Virus record (IMG/VR): IMGVR_UViG_2565956624_000008
DNA length: 64,000 nucleotides
Reading direction: 5' to 3' (one strand)
Source: a virus
Taxonomy: Duplodnaviria > Heunggongvirae > Uroviricota > Caudoviricetes
How positions within the stretch are numbered: position 1 is the first letter of the stretch; each line of letters opens with the position of its first letter. Of the stretch, positions 35,280 to 49,174 are shown in pieces. The notes under the pieces were generated by a model, which saw only the letters and a list, made by a program, of their open reading frames with translations, had not been told where the DNA came from and made no database searches. The position numbers were made by a program, and so were the translations under genes.

Positions 35280-36131
35280 CTATTGCGCGCTTTCGGGGTT
35301 GTCGTTTACTGGCTGCCCCTTCTTAGTTTTACGGCTGCGCGTAACTGATGCGGCTGATTTGACCTTTTTCTCTTCGCGAGTGATGGCAATTTGTTTTTTT
35401 ACATTTTCAATATCTGCCAGGCGATATATTTTTGCCTGCGGCCAGCGGTCGCAGATGATCGGTTCTATAGAGTCATAAAGGCTAAATTTTGCTTTCTCGA
35501 ATTCACCGTTGATGATGATTCCATCACGGAGAGTTTCATCGCAGATAAACACACCACACAGCGGCACATGGTAACTAACTGATTTACCATCATTGTAGTT
35601 AGGGCTACTGGAAATGTAATGGACGCGCAGCATTGTTTCGCTAAAGCCGTGTACACGCATACGGAATTTTTCATCCTCCGGGTACTGCTTCATTAGCTCT
35701 TTTGTTGCTTCCAGGTTCTCTATGTATTTCGCACTGTGCTCATTGATCCCCGCGCTTTTCTGGATGCGAATGTCCTTATCAATCAGATGAATAATGCGGC
35801 CAGCGGTCATGTTGACGCTGTTCACAGCTTCTGTCTGATAAGTTGTAACCTTACGCACACCGCGAAGGATGTTAGGCACTGGATATAAAATAGTCTTTGG
35901 GATATTGAGGTCTGGGTACTGTTCCAGTTCCCGCGCCATTAAAGTCCATTTATCAATTTCAGCCTGAATGCTGTCCGTTTCTTTGAACGGCAGAACGACA
36001 ACCGGGCGAACAGGACGACCGTCGCTGGCGGCATCAACGTGTTGGGCGCGTGCAACAGCTTTTTTTAGAAAGAGATCCCTGAAGCTGACGAACTCCTGGT
36101 ACAGTTGTTCGCCGTAGACATAATTTATCAT
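35280..36131 (-). CDS. c1: C1 repressor of lysis, 283 aa
   Basis: N-terminus MINYVYGEQLYQEFVSFRDLF and length match P1 C1; operator 17-mers occur throughout the window. Confidence 0.9.
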   Translation of the reverse strand: MINYVYGEQLYQEFVSFRDLFLKKAVARAQHVDAASDGRPVRPVVVLPFKETDSIQAEIDKWTLMARELEQYPDLNIPKTILYPVPNILRGVRKVTTYQTEAVNSVNMTAGRIIHLIDKDIRIQKSAGINEHSAKYIENLEATKELMKQYPEDEKFRMRVHGFSETMLRVHYISSSPNYNDGKSVSYHVPLCGVFICDETLRDGIIINGEFEKAKFSLYDSIEPIICDRWPQAKIYRLADIENVKKQIAITREEKKVKSAASVTRSRKTKKGQPVNDNPESAQ

Positions 36132-36242: not shown

Positions 36243-36451
36243 TATTGTGAGTCTGGCTGGTTAGTGGCCATGAGATATTCGATTGTGTCAGTGAGATCAT
36301 CCAGGTCGTCTTGGGTGATGCGGTACTCCTGATTGGATATCTTTGAGTAGTGTTCAGCAATGGCGCGGGCAGCGTCGGTTTCGGCGGGGTCTACAGATAA
36401 AGCGTTAGAGCAATGTCTAACGTCGTCGATGGTTGGTGGAATGAAAGCCAT
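36242..36451 (-). CDS. coi: C1 inactivator Coi, 69 aa
   Basis: Small acidic ORF immediately upstream of c1, size as in P1. Confidence 0.75.
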   Translation of the reverse strand: MAFIPPTIDDVRHCSNALSVDPAETDAARAIAEHYSKISNQEYRITQDDLDDLTDTIEYLMATNQPDSQ

Positions 36452-36679
36452 AATTATGCCTCACTGTATTGACAACACAGAGCCTGAAGCTCTGACCTAC
36501 TGTTTCACCCATGATCCATGCTGGGGTAATCTAACAACATTGCGCTGTGTGTAAGATGAGCAATGCATAGCTGTAATGCCGTTGTATAAGGTTTCCCTGT
36601 TTGCTCATTTCCTTCTGAGCCGCTCTACAACGCTGAAGACACATTAAATAGTGAATCCAAAGTCGTATTACGAAACGGC

Positions 36680-36696
36680 GGCAAAACTATAATTTA
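36680..36696 (-). promoter_or_regulatory. C1 operator (16/17)
   Basis: TAATTTATTAGAGCAAT. Confidence 0.65.
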
Positions 36697-36762
36697 TTAG
36701 AGCAATTGTCAAACAACTATGAAAAACAATCCAGTTTTTGGCTGGTGGAGTGGGATTTTTCT

Positions 36763-36779
36763 CTCAAAATTTATTGCTC
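36763..36779 (+). promoter_or_regulatory. C1 operator-like site ATTGCTCTAATAATTCT (15/17)
   Basis: Read directly. Confidence 0.6.
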
Positions 36780-36838
36780 TAATAATTCTTGATTTTTATG
36801 CGCAGCTGGACGTAAACTCCTCTTCAGACCCTTAAGGG

Positions 36839-36976
36839 TTATTGAACATGATCAATTTACCTGTAAATCCATACAGTTCAATACCTTACAGGTCAAATAG
36901 TGATCACTTGATCATTTGATCAAGGTTGCGCTACGTAAAATCTGCGAAATGTTGGCAGTGTTAGTGCTCCAGATTT
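36839..36976. promoter_or_regulatory. cre upstream regulatory region: four TGATCA Dam sites (36839, 36891, 36899, 36907) and an imperfect 17-bp inverted repeat (36918-36934 / 36960-36976)
   Basis: Read directly; cre promoters are known to be Dam-methylation sensitive. Confidence 0.5.
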
Positions 36977-37018
36977 CGCGTAGCGCACTTAGCACCACCA
37001 ATCAATCAGAGGTGAAAA

Positions 37019-37247: not shown

Positions 37248-38279
37248 ATGTCCAATTTACTGACCGTACACCAAAATTTGCCTGCATTACCGGTCGATGC
37301 AACGAGTGATGAGGTTCGCAAGAACCTGATGGACATGTTCAGGGATCGCCAGGCGTTTTCTGAGCATACCTGGAAAATGCTTCTGTCCGTTTGCCGGTCG
37401 TGGGCGGCATGGTGCAAGTTAAATAACCGGAAATGGTTTCCCGCAGAACCTGAAGATGTTCGCGATTATCTTCTATATCTTCAGGCGCGCGGTCTGGCAG
37501 TGAAAACTATCCAGCAACATTTGGGCCAGCTAAATATGCTTCATCGTCGGTCCGGGCTGCCACGACCAAGTGACAGCAATGCTGTTTCACTGGTCATGCG
37601 ACGGATCCGAAAAGAAAACGTTGATGCCGGTGAGCGTGCAAAACAGGCGCTGGCGTTCGAACGCACTGATTTCGACCAGGTTCGTTCACTCATGGAAAAT
37701 AGCGATCGCTGCCAGGATATACGTAATCTGGCATTTCTGGGGATTGCTTATAACACCCTGTTGCGTATAGCCGAAATTTCTAGGATCAGAGTTAAAGATA
37801 TCTCGCGTACTGACGGTGGGAGAATGTTAATCCATATTGGCAGAACGAAAACGCTGGTTAGCACCGCTGGTGTAGAGAAGGCACTTAGTCTGGGGGTAAC
37901 TAAACTGGTTGAGCGATGGATTTCTGTCTCTGGTGTGGCTGATGATCCGAATAACTACTTGTTTTGCCGTGTCAGAAAAAATGGTGTTGCCGCGCCATCT
38001 GCCACCAGCCAGCTATCAACTCGCGCCCTGGAAGGGATTTTTGAAGCAACTCACCGATTGATTTACGGGGCTAAGGATGACTCTGGCCAGAGATACCTGG
38101 CCTGGTCTGGACACAGTGCCCGTGTCGGAGCCGCGCGAGATATGGCCCGCGCCGGAGTTTCAATACCGGAGATCATGCAAGCTGGTGGCTGGACCAACGT
38201 AAATATTGTCATGAACTACATTCGTAACCTGGATAGTGAAACGGGGGCAATGGTGCGCCTGCTGGAAGATGGCGATTAG
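37248..38279 (+). CDS. cre: Cre tyrosine site-specific recombinase, 343 aa
   Basis: Essentially identical to P1 Cre from MSNLLTVHQNLPALPVDATSDEVRKNLMDMF to MVRLLEDGD. Confidence 0.97.
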   Translation: MSNLLTVHQNLPALPVDATSDEVRKNLMDMFRDRQAFSEHTWKMLLSVCRSWAAWCKLNNRKWFPAEPEDVRDYLLYLQARGLAVKTIQQHLGQLNMLHRRSGLPRPSDSNAVSLVMRRIRKENVDAGERAKQALAFERTDFDQVRSLMENSDRCQDIRNLAFLGIAYNTLLRIAEISRIRVKDISRTDGGRMLIHIGRTKTLVSTAGVEKALSLGVTKLVERWISVSGVADDPNNYLFCRVRKNGVAAPSATSQLSTRALEGIFEATHRLIYGAKDDSGQRYLAWSGHSARVGAARDMARAGVSIPEIMQAGGWTNVNIVMNYIRNLDSETGAMVRLLEDGD

Positions 38280-39447: not shown

Positions 39448-39635
39448 TAAATATATTATTTTTAATAATAAATGATTGACAACTGACAAGTGACTTCAGT
39501 CAGAATCATCACATGCCCGGTACGGATGGATCCCTTTTCAAATATTCCATGGACGGCACAGTCTGAGTACCGGGCGCTACCTTCAGTTGTATTGCTAAGC
39601 CGCCGCTGGTGGCTTTTCTTTTTTGTAGGGGCGTT

Positions 39636-40277
39636 ATGGATAAGAAAATATGCGTTGTTTCGATGAGCGTCGGCAAACCGGCATCAATGACTGCTGCATG
39701 GATCAATAACGAGCTGATAATGGCTGAGCGGACCAGCTACCCTGAACGCCGCCGCGATATGGAACTCCAGCTGCTGCGCGAATTGCGAGAAAAAGAGGAA
39801 AAGGGTTTTATCGTGCTGGTGGAAGAGGAAAACAGCTTTATTACTGGTCGAGTTGGCCAGCGTGTAAGGTTGCGCGATCCCTTCATGAACGGCAGGCCGG
39901 TACTAATTGAGGCAATGCAGATTTATAAGGAGCTGGAACGCCAGAAAGCAATCAAGTTACCGCGCAAGGAATCCGGCAAATACATCCTCCACCAAAGCAT
40001 CTTCGATTCCGAACACGATAAAAAAGGCGATGAATTTTTCAACATCAACTGGAGCGAAATAACGACAGAGCACGTTCTGACGTTGTTATGCTGCTTCGCA
40101 ACGGAATATAACAACGTTGCAAGCGCCGACTACATTAGGGCAATGGCAGGAGAAGTTGATGCCCGCCAGGAATCATCGTTACTAAGCCCTCTGATTAACA
40201 TAATTCGCGGAACCCAAACACTGGCACAAAAACGGGTGCCTAAAGGGGAGTTAACTGGAAAAGGAAATTATCTATAA
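39636..40277 (+). CDS. hypothetical protein, about 213 aa (possibly P1 mat-like by position; alternative start 39609)
   Basis: ORF with backbone-like GC, co-directional with and 56 bp upstream of the SIR2-like gene. Confidence 0.55.
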   Translation: MDKKICVVSMSVGKPASMTAAWINNELIMAERTSYPERRRDMELQLLRELREKEEKGFIVLVEEENSFITGRVGQRVRLRDPFMNGRPVLIEAMQIYKELERQKAIKLPRKESGKYILHQSIFDSEHDKKGDEFFNINWSEITTEHVLTLLCCFATEYNNVASADYIRAMAGEVDARQESSLLSPLINIIRGTQTLAQKRVPKGELTGKGNYL

Positions 40278-40333
40278 ACGTCAATGCATTAGGGTATACT
40301 TCTCCATAGAACTATAAGTAAATGGAGTAAGTA

Positions 40334-41641
40334 ATGAGCGAATATGTTGAGTTAGCATACGCTGCCGCTACAAGCAGGCTTTGTCTATTTACCGGGACTG
40401 GCTTTTCAAAGGCAGTCTCGAACGGTGAAGCTCCAACGTGGAAGGAACTATTAAAAAAAGTTTGCAGCAAAGTTCACAATGCCAAAAAGTTGGAAGACAC
40501 GTTATTCCCTGATGATAAACCACCAGCACTGAGTCTTGAAGAAGCCGCACAAATACTATCTTTGAAGCTCAATATTGAGGGTAAGTCGATTTATGATGAA
40601 ATTGTTGACATCATATCTCCAATTCAACTTGGAGAAGACATATCAAATATAAAAGATTTTTTCCAAAAAAACTCATTCCGTGTCATTACAACAAATTATG
40701 ACAAGTTGGCTGAATGCTTGGTTGGAGATGAAAGTGTGCAGTCTATCACGCCCGGCCTGCCAATTCCAAAGTATCCATCCAAGGTGAAAATATATCATGT
40801 TCATGGTTCTATTGATTCGCCAAAAAATATGATTGTCACTTCAGATGATTACTTCAGATTTATAAATTCCGATACTTATTTTTCACGAAAACTTAGTACG
40901 ATGCTGCATGAAAATACAGTTGCGATATTAGGGTATTCTTTAAGCGACACAAATCTTAAAGCAATTATAAATGACTATAAAAAATTTTCGAAAAATAATG
41001 CCCTGTGCTCTAATATCTTTTTGATATCTCGCAACAAAGTAAGTCAAGATATGAAGGATTATTACTTCTATTGCTTTGGTATAAGGGTAATTGACAATAC
41101 AGAAATAGATTGTTTCTTTAGTCGATTAAGTTATAAGATTTCTCTCATTAAAGACATCATTGAAAGAGCGCGCGAAAATATCAGAAAAGTTGTTTCGGGG
41201 GCTTACACTTATAAAAATGAATATCTTAAATTAGAGGATTCATTTTATCAAATTATATCATCAATTATATCGGAAGGTTTAGATTGGAATGATGATAAAG
41301 TCGTTTCTCTTTTCGAAAGGATAATAGAAAAAAAGAGAAAGTTAACAAGGAATAACGGAGCGTGGGAGCAATATGAACAGTTGGCAAAATGGCTTATATA
41401 TTTTGGAAGCATCATAGAGGTTAGCAATACTAAGTATGAAAAAACATATTTAGACGCAGTTGAATACTCGATGGGTCATATGAGTAAAGAAAGGAATTGG
41501 GGAGTTTCTTGGCATGCTTACAGAGCTTGGGAAACACGATGGCCTGCAATAATTGCCTCAAATAGATTAATGATAAAAAACCACATTGAAACATTAGGCA
41601 CCTTGAAGGACGCCAACCTTATAGTTAAGAATATAGTGTAA
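40334..41641 (+). CDS. SIR2-family (SIR2_2-like) protein with uncharacterised helical C-terminal domain, 435 aa; candidate NAD-consuming defence effector
   Basis: Motifs LFTGTGFSKA, ITTNYDKL, YHVHGS, ILGYSLSD; GGAG RBS; markedly AT-rich versus flanks. Confidence 0.85.
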   Translation: MSEYVELAYAAATSRLCLFTGTGFSKAVSNGEAPTWKELLKKVCSKVHNAKKLEDTLFPDDKPPALSLEEAAQILSLKLNIEGKSIYDEIVDIISPIQLGEDISNIKDFFQKNSFRVITTNYDKLAECLVGDESVQSITPGLPIPKYPSKVKIYHVHGSIDSPKNMIVTSDDYFRFINSDTYFSRKLSTMLHENTVAILGYSLSDTNLKAIINDYKKFSKNNALCSNIFLISRNKVSQDMKDYYFYCFGIRVIDNTEIDCFFSRLSYKISLIKDIIERARENIRKVVSGAYTYKNEYLKLEDSFYQIISSIISEGLDWNDDKVVSLFERIIEKKRKLTRNNGAWEQYEQLAKWLIYFGSIIEVSNTKYEKTYLDAVEYSMGHMSKERNWGVSWHAYRAWETRWPAIIASNRLMIKNHIETLGTLKDANLIVKNIV

Positions 41642-41652
41642 TTGTGGTCGAT

Positions 41653-41690
41653 AAAAATTTATCGGGCAGATAAAACTGCCCGATAAATTA
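41653..41690. terminator. bidirectional terminator hairpin ATCGGGCAG-ataaaa-CTGCCCGAT flanked by A/T runs, between convergent SIR2-like and lxc-like genes
   Basis: Perfect 9-bp stem read directly. Confidence 0.65.
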
Positions 41691-41936
41691 ATCAGCATTC
41701 AGGAGCAATGCGTTATCTATGATGATCTGCTCCCATTCTTCGAATGCCCGGTCACGGACGCCCTGGGGAACGCTGTTAGTTTTGAAATCGACGACCGTAC
41801 GCCATTTCCCGTCCGGACGGTACATGCGCAGAGCTTTACTTCCCCCTTCCCTGCGCACCTCAACGTTATGCTTATCAGCAAACTCTTGTAATGCTCGTAG
41901 CGTCCCATGCTTTACTGTGTAGTATCGCTTTTTCAA
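41688..41936 (-). CDS. small protein, 82 aa (P1 Lxc/Bof-like by size and position)
   Basis: Last gene of the minus-strand operon headed by darB. Confidence 0.55.
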   Translation of the reverse strand: MKKRYYTVKHGTLRALQEFADKHNVEVRREGGSKALRMYRPDGKWRTVVDFKTNSVPQGVRDRAFEEWEQIIIDNALLLNAD

Positions 41937-42373
41937 GTTTTCTCTCCAGCCTGTGCTAAGGCTTCAACTTCCAAATCGTAAGACTCAAACTCATAGTCCT
42001 GGTCGTCAACCTCTTCAGGCACTGGCAGTAAATGCCAGGCTGAGTATATCTGACCATTATCAAAACGCTCCTGGCTGTAGAGCGTCGCAGCTATGAGCGT
42101 CAGCGCCGGGCGGTCATAACGGTAAATTTTGCGAACGTCACGGTCAACGAGACGACCGAAATTACCATAACCGCGCTCCAGTAATAATTTTTTAATTTCC
42201 GGCCAGTATGGACCATAGCTGCGGTACAGGCGGGGATTTTTCAGTAATCGCCCGCGTAGCCCTGACAGGAAGAAATCAACGTATTCGTCTTCTGTCTTTC
42301 CTAACAACGCTGTACGGAGTACCGCCTCAAGATATGTTTTATTCGGTTTTATTGTATCAGATAGTGTGGCCAT
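41933..42373 (-). CDS. hypothetical protein, 146 aa (P1 Ulx-like by position downstream of darB)
   Basis: Overlaps neighbour stop; operon context. Confidence 0.55.
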   Translation of the reverse strand: MATLSDTIKPNKTYLEAVLRTALLGKTEDEYVDFFLSGLRGRLLKNPRLYRSYGPYWPEIKKLLLERGYGNFGRLVDRDVRKIYRYDRPALTLIAATLYSQERFDNGQIYSAWHLLPVPEEVDDQDYEFESYDLEVEALAQAGEKT

Positions 42374-42406: not shown

Positions 42407-45400
42407 TTATGCGTATTGTTGGATGACGGCCAGAACGTCCGCCACGTTGTGTTTTGTCTCGATAATCCACCAGTTACCCGGGAAATCGCTGTTCTTCGCC
42501 TTCGCTGGCAGCCAGCGAGCGCCGAATTTCGCCTTGATTGCGTCTTTCGCACGGAAAAGAACGCCTTTCATGCCTGAGGCTTCCTGAAGCCCAAATACCT
42601 CGCCAGCGGCGAATTTTGGTGCGTACATCATCTTCAGGTCGGCGGTGGATACGCGATAATTCAGACCAAGAGACTGAGCTATGCTGGTGGCATCACCCTG
42701 TATTGATGATAACTCTTCTTGTTTCTCGTTTCTGGCGGCAATTTCTTCCTCCGTGATGTTGCCAAGGGCCAGGTTTATCCGATCAGCGTCGGCCTGTTTC
42801 TCTTCATCGGTGCGCCCGGCAAGAACCGTGTTAATTCTCTGCAATATCTCCACATGATTCTTACGCATGCTGAGCAATTCCGGCGTAACTTCGTTAAGAT
42901 CCACCAGCCCAAGGATGGCAAGGTCGGAAAACATTGATACCAGGTTGTAGGTCATGCGATAGCTGAGTTGGCCATAGGCTGATGGCAACTGCACCGCATC
43001 CATTTTATAGGCATCCATAAATTTAGAGCCGTCGTTTACGACATCCGCAATTGCCGGTGTGATTTTTCCTGTGGTGGCGGCCTCCCTGATTGCTGTTACC
43101 CACGATTGAGTCAGCGCGGAAACTGCATGATTCAGATTGGCTTTGCGTTCTGCTGCAATGCGCGCGCTTGCAGCGTCCATTGACTGTTTGATCTCGTCTT
43201 TATTGCTGTAAATGCCAATGGTGCCAAACTGTGCTGTGGTGATCTCATAATCTGACGCCCGGAACTCATTGGTACCGAAAATGGCATTGGTGACTTCAAG
43301 TTCAGAATCCCCGTTACGAGTAGCCCCCTGGCTTGTTTTTTCCGGCATTCTGGCGATCGCATCCGCTATTTTCTCCTGAATTGCTTCAGGGGATAGCGTA
43401 TCTCCGTATGACGCGATTACATCGCCATAATTGGAGCCAAACAGTTCAACCAGGAATGTTTCTGCCGAACGGATCTGGCGGTTATTCCCTTCCGACATCA
43501 TACCAAGCACCCATTTTGCAATTGACGACTTCAGCGCGCCGTCACGGCGATCCGGGTAAACCGCATGCTTCAGTGGGTCCGTATAGGTACCAACAAAATC
43601 AATGCTATAGCCTGACTCTGTAGTCTGAACGCCGTATGAGTCAGTGATTTTGATCATGCCGCGCTGCTGGAAACGGTAGAAATCGTCACAGGAAATGATG
43701 TCGTTAATCCCGGCGATGGAGACGCCGCCACTGATTTTCTGCATAACAGCATCTTCATCGGGAGTTACATCAACCTGTTTATCCAGCGTCTTCACATCCC
43801 AGTTACCCGATTTGGTGCCTTTGAAGGTAAAGATGATCTCCACGTCTGCGCGGTGGCTGTCGAAGTCCAGCGACTTAATGCGAACGATATCACCGGCACA
43901 ATCGTAGTATTGGCCTACACGCCATGAGCGATCGCCGATAACAAGGAACTCATTCGCATGGTTAACCAGATCAGGATCAACATCCAGAATGCCTTTATTT
44001 ATTGCATCCTCCACCAGCGGGCGCAGGCGTTTGATATCCGTCGCGGCCTTCTGAGTACGGTTCAATAATTTCTCATAGCGGGAGATGGCCTGAGAGATAT
44101 TAGCCTTGCGCTGAATGGCGCTTTTCAACGACGCGCGATACTGTGCTAACAACGTACGGTCTGTGTGATGGACGCTACCCCAGCGGGCCTTCCAGTCTGC
44201 GTTATCAGCTGCTTTGGCCATTACCGCCTGTTTGAATTTAGCTACCTCGGCGGTGGTCTTTTCAAGTTCCGCTTTGCTTCGCTCTAATTCAGCGGTAAGT
44301 ACCTCCACATCCTCGCCAGCTGCGTGCTGCGCCTTGATGTAGTTCTGAAGGTCGATAGTAGCCTGTTCTTTCTGGCGAGCGCGTTGCGCGGCTTTCGCCT
44401 TATCCATTTGAACCTGCATCATTGCCAGACGTTCGCCATCATCCTTAGCGGTATACATCTGCATTTCGATCATATCGTTGGCGTCGGCGTTCTCCATTTC
44501 AGACTTATCTGAGCGGAGGATATCGGAGATCCAGCCTGCTTTACGCTTCAGCGTCTTCAGTCGGTATTCATCGAAAGAACCCTTGCCGCAGTAGTAGTGA
44601 ACGCGAACGCTTGCACGGTTGGAGCCAACTCGTGCACCGCGACCGTTACGTTGTGCGATACTGGCTGGTGTCCACGGCAACGTCAGGTGGTGGATATCCG
44701 TCGTTCCTCGATGCAGGTTGATACCCACCTCTGCCTTTTTGTTGCAGATGATGATCGGAGTCCGGCCCTCCTGGAAGTCGGCTGCAATCTTTTCCAGACC
44801 GCCCAACGACATTTCATTTTGCTGCGCGATATAGGCGTCATACAGAGCCATTTGCTCGTTGTATCTCGCTATCTGTGCATCTGTTGGTTCATCCGGTAGC
44901 TCTTTCGGCGGTTTAACCGCTTTCAGTTTCTTACCGGTTTTACCTGCCTCGGCAACCGTCTGAGCATTCAGGATCCCCACCTTTGAAGGTTCAAGGTTAA
45001 GAGCATTGCAGATAATGCGCTTGAGCTTCTGGTGTTGCGTTTTTTCATCGGTGAAGATGATTTGCTTACCTTCCGGGAAAAACTCCTTCAGCGTGGCAAT
45101 CAGCTTCGCGTATTTGGGCGTAACGGGGTGAGTTACGGTCTGTTCGTCAATGCCAAACCTGGCCAGGCGCTTATTCACTTCCTGCTCGAACGCTTCCGGA
45201 ACCTGCAACTGAATAAACTCGCCCTTATCTATCAGGGAGTATTGCGATTGCTGCGTGATTGAATCATCACTGTCGTCGTCTTCGCTGGTGGCTTGTTTAG
45301 GCAAACTGTCCGCCAGCTGCTGCACCGCATCGGCGTACTCCGGCAGGAAACGATAGGTGATCCGGCGATAGTACAGGTCCATGTCAGTACATACGCGGTC

Positions 45401-48400
45401 CATATCCCTGATTATTGAGAAGATCGGACGGGCTTTCTCGTGCTCAATCACGCCGTCTTCATTGACCGAGGTCGTTACGCCATTGTTGGCTTTGGCCGCC
45501 GCTTCCGCCTGCTGACGTAATTCTTCATACGCCGCCAGTTGTTCTTCAGTAAGTGGTGCATCCTGCTGGTGCTCGTCCAGTTCCGGGATCTCCACGGTAT
45601 CCTTAACGTCTTCCGCCGTTTTAAGCGTTGTCCAGCGATGGAATATGCCGCGCAGCGCATCAAGGTTTTCAAAGCCCACCAGCGCCATTTTTTCTTCAAC
45701 TTCACCGCTGATTTTCTGTACCGTTTCCAGCCTGGTCTTGCCGAAGAATTTAACGAAGTCATCAGGACCGTAGATCCCCATCTTCTGCCAGTATTCCTTC
45801 GGCAGCACATGAGAAAGCATGTTGTATGCATCGATCGGGGTGTTAACGACTGGCGTTGCAGTCAGGAGAACCGGTCCGCGCCCACCATTCTTTTTCATCA
45901 GGTACGCGTTTTTAATTGCCATATCCCGCGCCGATTGCGCCACCGCGCTGGTGGGCAGATAGGCCAGTTGTGACGCTTCGCGACCATTTTTATAGCTATT
46001 GCGGTAGTTGTGACCTTCGTCAGCGATCACACTATCGAAGCCCATATCCTCAAAGTACGGATACTTCTCTGCTTTTTCGGTGCCGGTATCTGAATACTCC
46101 GACAATACCCGGCGACGCGCGGCCTCTTTGCGGTGGGAGTCGGAGTCCATTGCGCTGGCTACGCGCCCGGCGGCAACGAAGTCATAAAGCATATCCTGTG
46201 CATGCTCATCTACGGTGTCATCACGTAGCGGAATGCGGGCGTATTGTTCTTTGGTAAACACGACTGCACGGTAATTTGAGTGCGGGATCGCGTTCATCCG
46301 CGCCGTGATAGTGGCTTCATCTGCCAGTTTTAGGGCATCGCGCATAACTGGAGTGCCATCAGTACCAAGAACAGGTTTACCGTTCTCATCGAGCACCGGC
46401 ACCTGGCGAATCTGATCGCCATCCATCAGCACATCAAGACCGACGAACAGGTAGTTACTGAATGCCTCTTCACTCAGGAATTCTTTTGCTTCGTAATACC
46501 AGTTTTCCAGCACTGATTTAGGCACTACATACGCAGTACGGGTGGAGCGACCGTTCTCATAGTTGAACGCTTCAAGCGCCAGCGCGGTCGTAGTTTTACC
46601 CAGCCCGGTGCCGAAGCCCAGGATGCCGCGCCCATCTTCGGACAGTCGGCGCACTTCGCTATTCTGGTAATCAAATGGCTGGCGCTTACCGCTTAATCCC
46701 TTCAACCCAAGCGGATCGCCAGAGTGTTCATACGGGATATTGCTATTGAACACATCGTTGTATTTGGCAACCAGTTCATCGTAGCGATCGTGCGTCTTGA
46801 TCCACTTATTGAACTGGTCCTCAAGCAGTGCCATCTGCTCGCGGTAGCCGTTCGCCGTCGCGCTATCTTTGCCACCGATACGCGCACCATTGAGATACTT
46901 TTCCAGCTGTGCCGGGAACCCGGTCGCGTTTTCACCTGATTTACGGTCCCACTCGTAGCGGATCTCGCCTGTTTCTTTATCCTTGCGCTGGACGACACCG
47001 TATCGGTGCCCGACGAACAGACCATCACCACCGTGATAGGTGTCAGAAACCATTTCGTCGCCTTCCAGCTGCACTGACTGCACATAGCGAAGATCCGGAT
47101 AGCCGTTTTCCTGCAAAAATTCCAGAATGACGGAACGGTCGAACCAACGGCTATTGAGCTTAAAGCGGATATTCTCTGCTGGCGTCTTGATGCGCTTCTC
47201 TTCGATCGCTGCCAGCTGATTAAGGACGTTGTTCTTTACTGGACCGTCGGGGAGTGTGGCAAGGAATTCCTGTTTTGGTGCCACTATCTCGTTAATGTCG
47301 CCGCTGGTGGCGCGGGCGAACGGAACAATCCCGCCATACGGTGAAACCGCAATGCCAGGGGTGCTGGCCAATAAATTAAGCAACTCGTCATCACTGGCTG
47401 GCAGTTCGCCGGTAAACGCAAGGCGGAAATCATCGAGCTGGATTGGATCGCGAGTGAGATCACTGTAGAGATAACGCAGGGTGTCCTGATAGCTGGTGGA
47501 GTCATAACTGGCGCTGGAATCATGCGTAACCAGTTTTCCTGTCAGCTCGTCAGAAATAGTGCCATCCAGCTTAATTGCACCACGGAAAGCAAACCAGGCG
47601 CGCGCACCGCTCCCCGATAATTTCGCTATCGGACCGCGACCGGGGTTACCAAAACGGTCAATCTCTGCCTGCAAACGGGATACCAGAGAAAGGCGCTGCT
47701 GTTCGATTTGTTCAGCACTATGCCCGGCGGCCTTCATGTCCTGATATTCAATTAACATCCGGCCAATCATCGCCCCGCGATACAAGCGTTCACGGTATTT
47801 TTCAGGCTGGCTGTTAATCCAGTCCACCAGCTGCACCATATCGTCGCTGATTGATGTGGTGTACTTATCGCGGACATTTGCCATCTGGGTAAATGTCATA
47901 CCGAGACGGCCTTCTGTTGTAGTCAGGTTACGCTGAAGAGCCTCCCAGCTGTCCGCGCCATAACTGGCAACATCAATCTTCAGCTCCTTCCCTGCATCAG
48001 ATTCAATCCAGCGACCACCAGCATATTTTTGCCATACGCCATTAATCAGGCGCATTTCCCCTTCATCAACAACGTCTGCGGTCGGTGACGGTTCAGCCAT
48101 ATTGAGCAAAGACCAGTCGATACGACTTTCGAAACGATGAATCAGCTTCGCTTTAAGAGCCTGGTTATCAATCTGCCCGTCGGCACGAACCTCAATACGC
48201 CCCTGGAATCCCTTCTCCTGGGTGCCATGAACAAACCGGCGGCCGTCCTTTTCAAACCACTTGCCAGAAATAAACGTTGGCCAAAGCACATTTGCCGATT
48301 CAAGAGTGCCTTCATCCACCAGGGGGATTTTCTCAGCCATCTCTGCCGGATGTTTGCGCATCAGCACCACATCAACGACTGTACTGGTCCCGTTTGCGTC

Positions 48401-49174
48401 AAAAGTACCGGTAGGCAAGCGGTGAGCGCCAAGAAATTCAGCTTTCCGTGATAGGCGCAGGCGTAACCGCTTCATGTTTGAACCTGAAACAATGGACGGC
48501 GGCACAATCACGCACATGAATCCGCCTGGCTTTATCTTGTCCAGCATGCGGAGCATGAAGTAAGAACCCATGTCCGTTTCTTCTGCGTAAGGCTTATCGA
48601 TGTTGCGTGTGTTATCACGACCACCGAACGGAACGTTACCCACAACATGGTCGAATGAATCGTTAGGCGTGCTTACAGCCAGCTGTTCGAACGGGGAAAT
48701 CTGTACGCTGTCTTCCGGGTGTAACAGCTGGTTTATACGACCGGAAACACTGCTGATCTCAGTCGCAGTCATCACCGTACCAACCGGTTTTGTCTCATTA
48801 AAAACGCCGGTGCCCGCCGATGGTTCCAGAGTGTTACCTACGTCCGCGCCGTAGAGCTTCATGATCTCCCAGACACCTTCAGCGATCGGCTTTGGTGTGT
48901 AATATTCGGAGACGGACCCGCCAATGCCGCCTTCACCGGTGTACCCAGCCAGGATCTGGCGCTGTTCATCTGTCAGTGTCGCGCCGTCCACCAGCGAATT
49001 AAGCAAATCTATCGCCTTCTGATTCGCCTCCCGGCGCAGTCGGTCATAGCTTTTGCCTTCCACCTTTTCCACGCCGTATTTAATCGGCGCTCGGTGAGAT
49101 GTTATTGCCCTAATGTATTTCAATATTTCGCTGACACTTGAACAGCGAAACACCCCCATAGATAGCTTGTTCAT
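42407..49174 (-). CDS. darB: DarB-like antirestriction protein: N-terminal N6-adenine methyltransferase domain fused to DExH helicase, 2255 aa
   Basis: LEPSAGTGVF and GNVPFGG MTase motifs; GFGTGLGKTTTA and VIADEGHNYRN helicase motifs; length matches P1 DarB. Confidence 0.9.
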   Translation of the reverse strand: MNKLSMGVFRCSSVSEILKYIRAITSHRAPIKYGVEKVEGKSYDRLRREANQKAIDLLNSLVDGATLTDEQRQILAGYTGEGGIGGSVSEYYTPKPIAEGVWEIMKLYGADVGNTLEPSAGTGVFNETKPVGTVMTATEISSVSGRINQLLHPEDSVQISPFEQLAVSTPNDSFDHVVGNVPFGGRDNTRNIDKPYAEETDMGSYFMLRMLDKIKPGGFMCVIVPPSIVSGSNMKRLRLRLSRKAEFLGAHRLPTGTFDANGTSTVVDVVLMRKHPAEMAEKIPLVDEGTLESANVLWPTFISGKWFEKDGRRFVHGTQEKGFQGRIEVRADGQIDNQALKAKLIHRFESRIDWSLLNMAEPSPTADVVDEGEMRLINGVWQKYAGGRWIESDAGKELKIDVASYGADSWEALQRNLTTTEGRLGMTFTQMANVRDKYTTSISDDMVQLVDWINSQPEKYRERLYRGAMIGRMLIEYQDMKAAGHSAEQIEQQRLSLVSRLQAEIDRFGNPGRGPIAKLSGSGARAWFAFRGAIKLDGTISDELTGKLVTHDSSASYDSTSYQDTLRYLYSDLTRDPIQLDDFRLAFTGELPASDDELLNLLASTPGIAVSPYGGIVPFARATSGDINEIVAPKQEFLATLPDGPVKNNVLNQLAAIEEKRIKTPAENIRFKLNSRWFDRSVILEFLQENGYPDLRYVQSVQLEGDEMVSDTYHGGDGLFVGHRYGVVQRKDKETGEIRYEWDRKSGENATGFPAQLEKYLNGARIGGKDSATANGYREQMALLEDQFNKWIKTHDRYDELVAKYNDVFNSNIPYEHSGDPLGLKGLSGKRQPFDYQNSEVRRLSEDGRGILGFGTGLGKTTTALALEAFNYENGRSTRTAYVVPKSVLENWYYEAKEFLSEEAFSNYLFVGLDVLMDGDQIRQVPVLDENGKPVLGTDGTPVMRDALKLADEATITARMNAIPHSNYRAVVFTKEQYARIPLRDDTVDEHAQDMLYDFVAAGRVASAMDSDSHRKEAARRRVLSEYSDTGTEKAEKYPYFEDMGFDSVIADEGHNYRNSYKNGREASQLAYLPTSAVAQSARDMAIKNAYLMKKNGGRGPVLLTATPVVNTPIDAYNMLSHVLPKEYWQKMGIYGPDDFVKFFGKTRLETVQKISGEVEEKMALVGFENLDALRGIFHRWTTLKTAEDVKDTVEIPELDEHQQDAPLTEEQLAAYEELRQQAEAAAKANNGVTTSVNEDGVIEHEKARPIFSIIRDMDRVCTDMDLYYRRITYRFLPEYADAVQQLADSLPKQATSEDDDSDDSITQQSQYSLIDKGEFIQLQVPEAFEQEVNKRLARFGIDEQTVTHPVTPKYAKLIATLKEFFPEGKQIIFTDEKTQHQKLKRIICNALNLEPSKVGILNAQTVAEAGKTGKKLKAVKPPKELPDEPTDAQIARYNEQMALYDAYIAQQNEMSLGGLEKIAADFQEGRTPIIICNKKAEVGINLHRGTTDIHHLTLPWTPASIAQRNGRGARVGSNRASVRVHYYCGKGSFDEYRLKTLKRKAGWISDILRSDKSEMENADANDMIEMQMYTAKDDGERLAMMQVQMDKAKAAQRARQKEQATIDLQNYIKAQHAAGEDVEVLTAELERSKAELEKTTAEVAKFKQAVMAKAADNADWKARWGSVHHTDRTLLAQYRASLKSAIQRKANISQAISRYEKLLNRTQKAATDIKRLRPLVEDAINKGILDVDPDLVNHANEFLVIGDRSWRVGQYYDCAGDIVRIKSLDFDSHRADVEIIFTFKGTKSGNWDVKTLDKQVDVTPDEDAVMQKISGGVSIAGINDIISCDDFYRFQQRGMIKITDSYGVQTTESGYSIDFVGTYTDPLKHAVYPDRRDGALKSSIAKWVLGMMSEGNNRQIRSAETFLVELFGSNYGDVIASYGDTLSPEAIQEKIADAIARMPEKTSQGATRNGDSELEVTNAIFGTNEFRASDYEITTAQFGTIGIYSNKDEIKQSMDAASARIAAERKANLNHAVSALTQSWVTAIREAATTGKITPAIADVVNDGSKFMDAYKMDAVQLPSAYGQLSYRMTYNLVSMFSDLAILGLVDLNEVTPELLSMRKNHVEILQRINTVLAGRTDEEKQADADRINLALGNITEEEIAARNEKQEELSSIQGDATSIAQSLGLNYRVSTADLKMMYAPKFAAGEVFGLQEASGMKGVLFRAKDAIKAKFGARWLPAKAKNSDFPGNWWIIETKHNVADVLAVIQQYA

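Follow-up and report, generated by a model that had tools for sequence, protein, structure and literature searches.

An imported SIR2-family gene at the res-mod site of a P1-like phage-plasmid is a candidate one-gene abortive-infection cassette

A stretch of 64,000 nucleotides from IMG/VR virus record IMGVR_UViG_2565956624_000008 (hereafter the window) is a P1-like phage-plasmid, and at the site where P1 carries its EcoP1I res-mod genes it has a single SIR2-family gene at positions 40334-41641. This locus raises the question of what a lone SIR2 protein does there. On the basis of sequence, structural models and analogy with characterized systems, we think it probable that the gene is a one-gene anti-phage abortive-infection cassette, in which a DSR-like sensor and a predicted NADase (an enzyme hydrolyzing nicotinamide adenine dinucleotide, NAD) would be combined in one self-contained protein. 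We infer the NADase activity and its auto-inhibition, as well as a trigger and a protective effect. The cassette itself is autonomous as a single gene.

Results

The N-terminal half is a SIR2_2 domain of the DSR2/ThsA type

The gene and its two predicted domains are as follows.

40334-41641, + strand: SIR2-family gene; ATG start, 435 codons plus stop, from the open reading frame (ORF) list
40334-41098, + strand: SIR2_2 domain (DSR2/ThsA-type, NADase-like), residues 1-255; from Pfam, the DSR2 alignment and Foldseek
41099-41638, + strand: family-specific alpha-solenoid, residues 256-435; from a separate model

A sequence-only reading of this DNA had recognized a SIR2_2 motif set in the first half of the product, and all four motifs were located (GTGFS at residues 21-25, ITTNYD at 118-123, HVHGS at 155-159 and GYSLSD at 200-205). 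Pfam SIR2_2 (PF13289) matched residues 117-252 with an E-value of 1.1e-23 (84.4 bits against a cut-off of 24.5), and the same profile was matched by all 40 aligned homologues, in which G21-T-G-F-S25, T119-T-N-Y-D123 and H155-x-H-G-S159 are invariant. Within this domain lie the NAD loop GTGFS and, at catalytic positions, N121, D123 and H157. When Protein Data Bank (PDB) sequences were searched, the best match was DSR2 (E 4.5e-10, residues 14-282), followed by KomC and ThsA, and N121 and H157 aligned with N133 and H171 of DSR2. An AlphaFold model of the whole protein, built from the 40-sequence alignment, had a predicted local distance difference test score (pLDDT) of 83 and a predicted template-modelling score (pTM) of 0.81; its top Foldseek match was again DSR2 (E 4.5e-9), with DSR2 SIR2-only chains giving TMt 0.65-0.70 at ~5 Å. 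The SIR2 fold was therefore positive both by profile (Pfam SIR2_2) and by structure comparison (Foldseek DSR2), and these predictions show a SIR2_2 fold with intact catalytic-position residues.

Membership in the canonical sirtuin deacylases was considered and rejected. The canonical sirtuin profile (Pfam SIR2, CobB/Sir2 type) did not match at E <= 1, and the protein has no CxxC pairs of a Cys4 zinc module, its six cysteines being at positions 17, 44, 128, 225, 247 and 260.

The C-terminal half is a helical domain private to this family

The second half of the protein had been described as helical and unrecognized, and this description is supported. Modelled alone, the C-terminal 180 residues were all helical with a pLDDT of 90.3, so that we confidently predict an alpha-solenoid, and no specific relative of the domain was found by Foldseek, by a profile search of PDB sequences or in Pfam. 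Residues W344, Q346, Y347, W353, W393, W399, W403, N410 and R411 are invariant in the 40 sequences. Scored against 1.84 billion representative proteins, the domain was found in only 75 clusters; the full-length matches are 421-480 aa long with the domain at ~255-435, those checked carry SIR2_2, and the short ones are fragments. Because the 75 clusters are SIR2 fusions or fragments, the tail is private to this SIR2 family, and for the same reason we rejected the idea that it is a sensor module shuffled onto other effectors.

The protein is DSR2-like in layout and fits no named system

Like DSR2, the window protein is a single chain with an N-terminal SIR2_2-type NADase domain followed by an alpha-helical solenoid, and DSR2 is its best PDB match by both sequence and structure, with the catalytic Asn and His aligned. 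Two reports describe DSR2 as a SIR2 domain plus an alpha-solenoid that is switched on by a phage tail-tube protein (PMC11850899, PMC11263360). Because a SIR2 domain joined to a helical-repeat sensor is the DSR2 architecture, the window protein would be a short variant of a known logic. The difference lies in size and in the tail: DSR2 has ~1000 aa with MID and CTD solenoids of ~700 aa, whereas the helical part of the window protein has 180 aa, and a profile of this tail finds no DSR2 chain in the PDB. DSR2 membership (NCBIfam NF041819) was rejected, since the protein has just 435 aa and scored 22.5 bits against a cut-off of 1400, over residues 117-208 only. DSR1 (NCBIfam NF041818) was likewise rejected at 26.2 bits against a cut-off of 1400.

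ThsA is closer in length (~480 aa) and also begins with a SIR2_2 NADase domain. PDB entries of ThsA match the window protein, and the PADLOC ThsA models match its residues 119-238, overall within 14-238 only. The C-terminus is where the two proteins part, since that of the window protein is an all-alpha solenoid with no SLOG (STALD) domain. In ThsA, the C-terminal SLOG domain binds a cyclic ADP-ribose signal (3'cADPR) from the TIR protein ThsB. No TIR-domain ThsB gene was found near the window SIR2 gene or in the seven homologue contexts described below.

The remaining named systems were rejected on gene content or length. For SIR2-HerA (Nezha), the cassette is one gene with no adjacent HerA, and a DUF87 gene lies 2.6 kb off in Halomonas alone; an NAD-depleting system of Vibrio cholerae that was checked is Nezha and is different from the window family. 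For Lamassu (LmuA-Sir2), the LmuA match covers 14-238 of 433 only and the cassette has no SMC/LmuB gene. For Avs5 (SIR2-STAND), the Pfam, NCBIfam and PADLOC scans gave no NTPase family, and the protein is too short. The best PADLOC match was PDC-S25 (E 1.4e-26), whose best stretch, model positions 127-289 of 517, is the SIR2 core only; the C-terminal halves differ. The sequence-only reading could not place the protein in a named system, and we agree, as DSR1/2, ThsA, SIR2-HerA, Lamassu and Avs5 each fail at least one defining feature.

One further family came up at low scores. AbiH (PF14253) had weak matches in 10 of the 40 family members, all below the Pfam cut-off (best E 7.8e-5), and did not match the window protein itself at E <= 1. 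Lactococcal AbiH is a Pfam-named phage abortive-infection protein, for which the reported match was 20.5 bits against a cut-off of 30.9. The weak matches hint at a possible SIR2-like core in lactococcal AbiH, which we regard as a lead and not as a relationship.

The gene is an imported cassette in the res-mod slot of P1

The gene order in the window is c1 (35280-36131, - strand), cra, cre (37248-38279), c8, ref, mat, the SIR2 gene, lxc, ulx and darB. The cassette and the genes that flank it are as follows.

40274-41687, no strand: imported cassette (island) in place of res-mod; GC content (guanine plus cytosine) 0.348, limits from the backbone-homology breakpoints
39636-40277, + strand: mat (maturation control), left flank; from homology to P1 mat and the annotation of an identical plasmid by the Prokaryotic Genome Annotation Pipeline (PGAP)
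41688-41936, - strand: lxc, right flank; from the P1 annotation
41933-42373, - strand: ulx, right flank; from the P1 annotation
42407-49174, - strand: darB, after lxc and ulx; from the P1 annotation
40324-40327, + strand: Shine-Dalgarno sequence GGAG, 6 nt 5' of the ATG; by sequence inspection
41656-41689, no strand: perfect hairpin of 14 bp separating SIR2 from lxc, which run toward each other; RNA folding energy -23.9 kcal/mol, z = -5.7

The mat gene of P1 (NC_005856) has its end at 3468; res (3544-6456) and mod (with IS5) come next, on the - strand, and lxc occupies 9750-9998. BLAST homology between the window and P1 ends at 40271 (P1 3462) and restarts at 41688 (P1 9750), and breakpoints at 40271-40273 and 41688 were also obtained against an empty-slot plasmid (L009) and against a plasmid with another SIR2 allele. 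Because the breakpoints coincide, the cassette occupies the P1 res-mod slot to within a few bases; it spans from the last mat codons to the base preceding the lxc stop codon. The lxc-ulx flank is 97.5-98.9% identical to P1 and other P1-like plasmids. Each positional statement of the sequence-only reading was thereby upheld: the P1 annotation and the shared breakpoints put the SIR2 gene where P1 has res-mod, the ref/mat-like genes and lxc-ulx-darB on its two sides are P1 backbone genes by homology, and tblastn found no Res or Mod homologue anywhere in the window. The SIR2 gene is not part of the P1 backbone, being absent from P1 itself and optional in the slot.

The same reading had described an AT-rich single-gene island of lower GC content than its neighbors, and this too was borne out. 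The gene has a GC content of 0.349, against 0.469 in the 5 kb to its left, 0.515 in the 5 kb to its right and 0.487 in the window, and the breakpoints enclose this one gene. An equally low GC content occurs in just 0.35% of 1308-bp windows across the 64-kb stretch; all such windows with a GC content <0.40 overlap the SIR2 gene, and the cassette is the lowest-GC ~1.3 kb of the window. The cassette is of foreign origin.

The SIR2 gene starts 56 nt downstream of mat on the same strand, and a terminator scan found none between the two. Inspection by eye of 40230-40333 revealed neither a P1 late-promoter-like AAGTGACTT box nor a C1 operator. The hairpin at 41656-41689, located within the cassette, was matched in stability by 0 of 200 shuffles and is likely a bidirectional terminator with the better T-run on the - strand.

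Homologues travel alone through unrelated backgrounds

Our search found 678 homologues. The best 120 of these are mostly near full-length (~434 aa) and, P1 alleles aside, are 52-62% identical and come from Gamma-, Beta- and Alphaproteobacteria. Seven genomic contexts were compared.

Escherichia coli chromosomes (L003-L006), gene at 8001-9311: lambdoid prophage edge, between int and host narP-ccm
Pantoea: HD/HD_assoc (dGTPase-like) gene
Stutzerimonas (L025/L026, 3110-7237): NERD-UvrD helicase gene 29 bp upstream, DUF2971 downstream
Halomonas: HNH/DUF87/FRG island, with the DUF87 gene 2.6 kb off
Rhizobium, Paracidovorax and Pseudoalteromonas: ordinary genes

No partner gene is shared across the seven, and the small upstream ORFs in Halomonas and Pseudoalteromonas are unrelated. 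The SIR2 gene behaves as an autonomous mobile unit, often amid defense-type genes. DUF2971 is both a neighbor in Stutzerimonas and a cargo of the P1 slot; therefore, single-gene cassettes may share a travelling pool. The E. coli prophage-edge paralogue (P0010), 60% identical, was present in 67 blocks of the assembly collection, and its spot at the int edge is a classic moron or defense position.

The mat-lxc interval is a cassette-exchange site in which this family is common

The flanks of the slot match 705 PLSDB records. Cargoes were surveyed in 60 evenly spaced records from these 705 and in six fetched loci.

Window SIR2 family: three allelic lineages
RelA/SpoT protein: full-length PADLOC PDC-S33; E 4.6e-185 to PDB 7ZTB (CapRelSJ46)
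YaaC-family gene plus a 169-aa ORF: no PADLOC match
DUF2971 protein: PADLOC PDC-S31
PIN protein: PADLOC PDC-S34
GNAT acetyltransferase: no PADLOC match
EAL remnant: short fragment
res-mod (EcoP1I): as in P1
No cargo: 43-bp spacer in the empty-slot plasmid
Larger inserts: flank pieces too distant for the search to join

The interval behaves as a precise cassette-exchange site with fixed breakpoints at the mat stop and the lxc stop, and its cargoes are mostly one- or two-gene defense or candidate-defense cassettes. In phage SJ46, CapRelSJ46, an anti-phage system validated by experiment (PMC9712102), is located in precisely this slot. It shares with the window gene the slot, the strand and the format of a single gene of ~1.1-1.3 kb in a P1-like phage, and it unites sensor and toxic effector in one protein for which abortive-infection defense has been demonstrated (PMC9712102). 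The effector of CapRelSJ46 is, however, of the RelA/SpoT family (toxSAS) and not SIR2, and the two have no sequence similarity. EcoP1I res-mod likewise is AT-rich imported cargo with the same slot and breakpoints (PMC6906374), but it has two genes in 6.3 kb on the opposite strand and acts by DNA discrimination rather than as a metabolic suicide effector. The res-mod interval of P1-like elements has already been published as variable, under the names RD-1 (P1 3,469-9,749; PMC6906374) and "region 1" (PMC9603915), and neither account of it mentions SIR2. The window cargo, between mat and lxc with breakpoints common to P1, corresponds to both.

By tblastn, 127 PLSDB plasmids carry a near full-length member of the SIR2 family (41 at >=95% amino acid identity, 17 at 80-90% and 69 at about 57-61%), while EcoP1I res is in 108 and the CapRel allele in 52. 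The family is thus at least as frequent in PLSDB as EcoP1I (127 vs 108 plasmids) and is among the commonest cargoes of the slot. In complete E. coli genomes, megablast located the gene in 64 of 5,426, and 66 of its 67 places were plasmid-borne; it was not found in the GenBank phage records of INPHARED. A protein identical to that of the window (WP_023156640.1) is annotated in P1-like plasmids as "SIR2 family protein," which PGAP now calls "SIR2 family NAD-dependent protein deacylase," and PHROG 7567, labelled "unknown function," matches over its full length (residues 1-434 vs 1-434 of 434, E 3.8e-248). No experimental support was found for either PHROG 7567 or PDC-S25. On this point the sequence-only reading is corrected, as the gene is neither rare nor peculiar to the element in the window. 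The gene is real, common and uncharacterized, and in principle it holds no surprise.

As to the EAL cargo, in one plasmid (L013, CP099125.1, 827-2509) an "EAL domain" ORF of 104-125 aa is followed by ~1.3 kb of unannotated DNA with a 170-aa ORF, which looks like a decayed or mis-annotated cassette. Extrapolated from the even-step sample, EAL cargo is perhaps in ~80 plasmids.

The alleles are older than their backbones and their tails change faster

Three allelic lineages of the SIR2 family, 57-100% identical, occur in the slot: A, that of the window; B, for example WP_032271833; and C, WP_104989456. The five sequenced alleles are 0.34-1.4 apart in synonymous divergence (dS), while their backbones are 95-99% identical; the alleles are therefore older than the backbones and have been exchanged by recombination. 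Between the window allele A and the 60% identical allele C (window 40274-40413 vs L010 967-1104), the 5' intergenic DNA and the first ~27 codons have ~95% nucleotide identity, which then falls to ~72%, so that a recombination breakpoint lies ~80 nt inside the gene. The ratio of nonsynonymous to synonymous divergence (dN/dS) between alleles was 0.05-0.09 for the SIR2 half and 0.12-0.22 for the tail. The dN of the tail was about five times that of the N-terminal half, and column entropy was lower in the N-terminal half (0.86) than in the tail (1.29). By these sequence comparisons the SIR2 gene is real and under purifying selection, and a pseudogene or chance ORF was rejected on dN/dS and conservation. 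The faster change of the tail is as expected for a specificity domain in arms-race turnover.

Discussion

We propose that the N-terminal SIR2_2 domain would be an NAD+ hydrolase held inactive, and that the C-terminal alpha-solenoid would be its regulatory or sensing module, possibly serving in oligomerization as well. On infection of the lysogen by a competing phage, the solenoid would be engaged by a cue from that phage, in all likelihood a protein, and the SIR2 domain would be switched on; the resulting collapse of NAD+ would kill or arrest the infected cell before the intruder matures, and this would protect sister cells that carry the plasmid. Several findings favor this proposal. The nearest solved relatives (DSR2, KomC and ThsA) are defense NADases, and the slot holds EcoP1I res-mod in P1, CapRelSJ46 in SJ46 and the PDC-S31, PDC-S33 and PDC-S34 candidates elsewhere. 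No partner gene is common to the seven contexts, whose neighborhoods include defense-type genes and a prophage edge.

Other findings weigh against it. No sigma-70-like promoter was scored directly upstream on the + strand, and the SIR2 gene lies behind mat, which in P1 is repressed by C1 and expressed late, so that expression in a lysogen is an assumption of the proposal. The tail has many invariant aromatic residues and was not found joined to other effectors, which makes it more conserved and less modular than is typical of fast-evolving phage-protein sensors; the overall dN/dS of each domain is far below 1. A literature search gave no account of the window protein or of any SIR2 gene in P1-like elements. 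In a 2025 survey of P1/D6 phage-plasmids, which covers ~1,600 P1-like records, type III restriction-modification, dGTPase, PrrC and CapRel are listed (bioRxiv 10.1101/2025.09.12.675607), and the SIR2 gene is not in its list, which we take to be DefenseFinder-based.

The conserved tail admits a variant of the proposal that we consider possible but doubtful, in which the solenoid may sense a conserved cue (a small molecule, a nucleic-acid state or a host perturbation) and not a variable phage structural protein, with the alleles tuning the response. If true, SIR2 effectors would include a mode of activation that is new and unlike that of DSR2, and such a switch would be maybe the commonest cargo of an uncharted single-gene defense-exchange site in phage-plasmids. 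It is unlikely that the protein is a non-autonomous SIR2 NADase that needs a small-molecule signal or a partner encoded on the P1 backbone or by the host, with the Trp-rich solenoid docking that ligand or partner instead of sensing a phage protein directly. The unusually invariant W344, Y347, W353, W393, W399 and W403, the restriction of the domain to this one SIR2 family, and the reliance of ThsA, KomC and SIR2-HerA on signals or partners would all fit such an effector, but the seven contexts in Alpha-, Beta- and Gammaproteobacteria have no conserved neighbor, the cassette moves as one gene between unrelated backgrounds, and no SLOG, STALD or other known nucleotide-sensor fold was found. In E. 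coli the gene is almost always plasmid-borne (66 of 67 places), which could instead point to mobile-element competition or plasmid maintenance, by exclusion of other P1-like phage-plasmids or in an addiction-like manner as EcoP1I does for P1, rather than to defense against lytic phages. The res-mod of the slot is regarded as aiding P1 plasmid stability (PMC6906374), and divergent alleles on near-identical backbones could define exclusion groups. We rate this as distinctly unlikely, since the cassette has no antitoxin-like partner or second ORF and chromosomal homologues occur in non-plasmid contexts; in any case it overlaps with a defense role and does not exclude one.

The current PGAP name would make the protein an NAD-dependent deacylase, or it could be an ADP-ribosyltransferase, that modifies a host or phage protein and so regulates, for example, P1 maturation or acts in counter-defense beside ulx and darB. 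With mat 56 nt upstream on the same strand and no terminator between, and with ulx and darB being anti-restriction genes, the position of the gene is suitable. A role of this kind is nevertheless highly improbable: only SIR2_2 was matched, with no canonical sirtuin at E <= 1, a CxxC zinc module is lacking, every one of the nearest solved relatives is a defense NADase, and the gene is optional, swaps with defense genes in the slot and is absent from P1. Finally, the slot also contains apparent remnants, such as the 104-125-aa "EAL domain" fragment, and no promoter was detected, as might be expected if the gene were a hitch-hiker in a recombination hotspot, without function or in decay. Against this stand a 435-codon ORF intact in >120 plasmids with dN/dS of 0.05-0.22, full-length identity of 52-62% over three proteobacterial classes and a confidently predicted fold, and we give the idea almost no weight, as these conservation data have in effect refuted it.

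Among E. coli and Salmonella of clinical and animal origin, P1-like phage-plasmids are widespread and act as vehicles of resistance genes, and the mat-lxc cargo influences which other phages grow on their hosts, which is relevant to phage therapy and to competition among mobile elements. If active, the window protein would be among the smallest self-contained SIR2 sensor-effectors, and its three natural alleles on near-isogenic backbones would be a ready system for mapping the phage specificity of a short helical domain.

Additional observations

The window has a second, milder AT-rich dip, with a GC content of 0.39, at 36400-36999, where regulatory DNA upstream of lox/cre separates the coi-side ORFs from cra. 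The frame of the first ~37 mat codons departs from that annotated in P1 (window 39490-39666 and 39609-40277): the N-terminal peptide of P1 mat, MDPFSNIPW..., is encoded in the window by a separate 58-aa ORF, and the PGAP start of mat is MDKKICVV (39636). Either the P1 annotation or the window element has a 1-nt indel. A terminator-like hairpin with a T-run is present at 39597-39615, between ref and the mat core and within the P1-annotated N-terminus of mat. In plasmid pRWS531 (L018, 1-844), IS26 truncates mat directly 5' of the allele B cassette, and the SIR2 ORF is intact.

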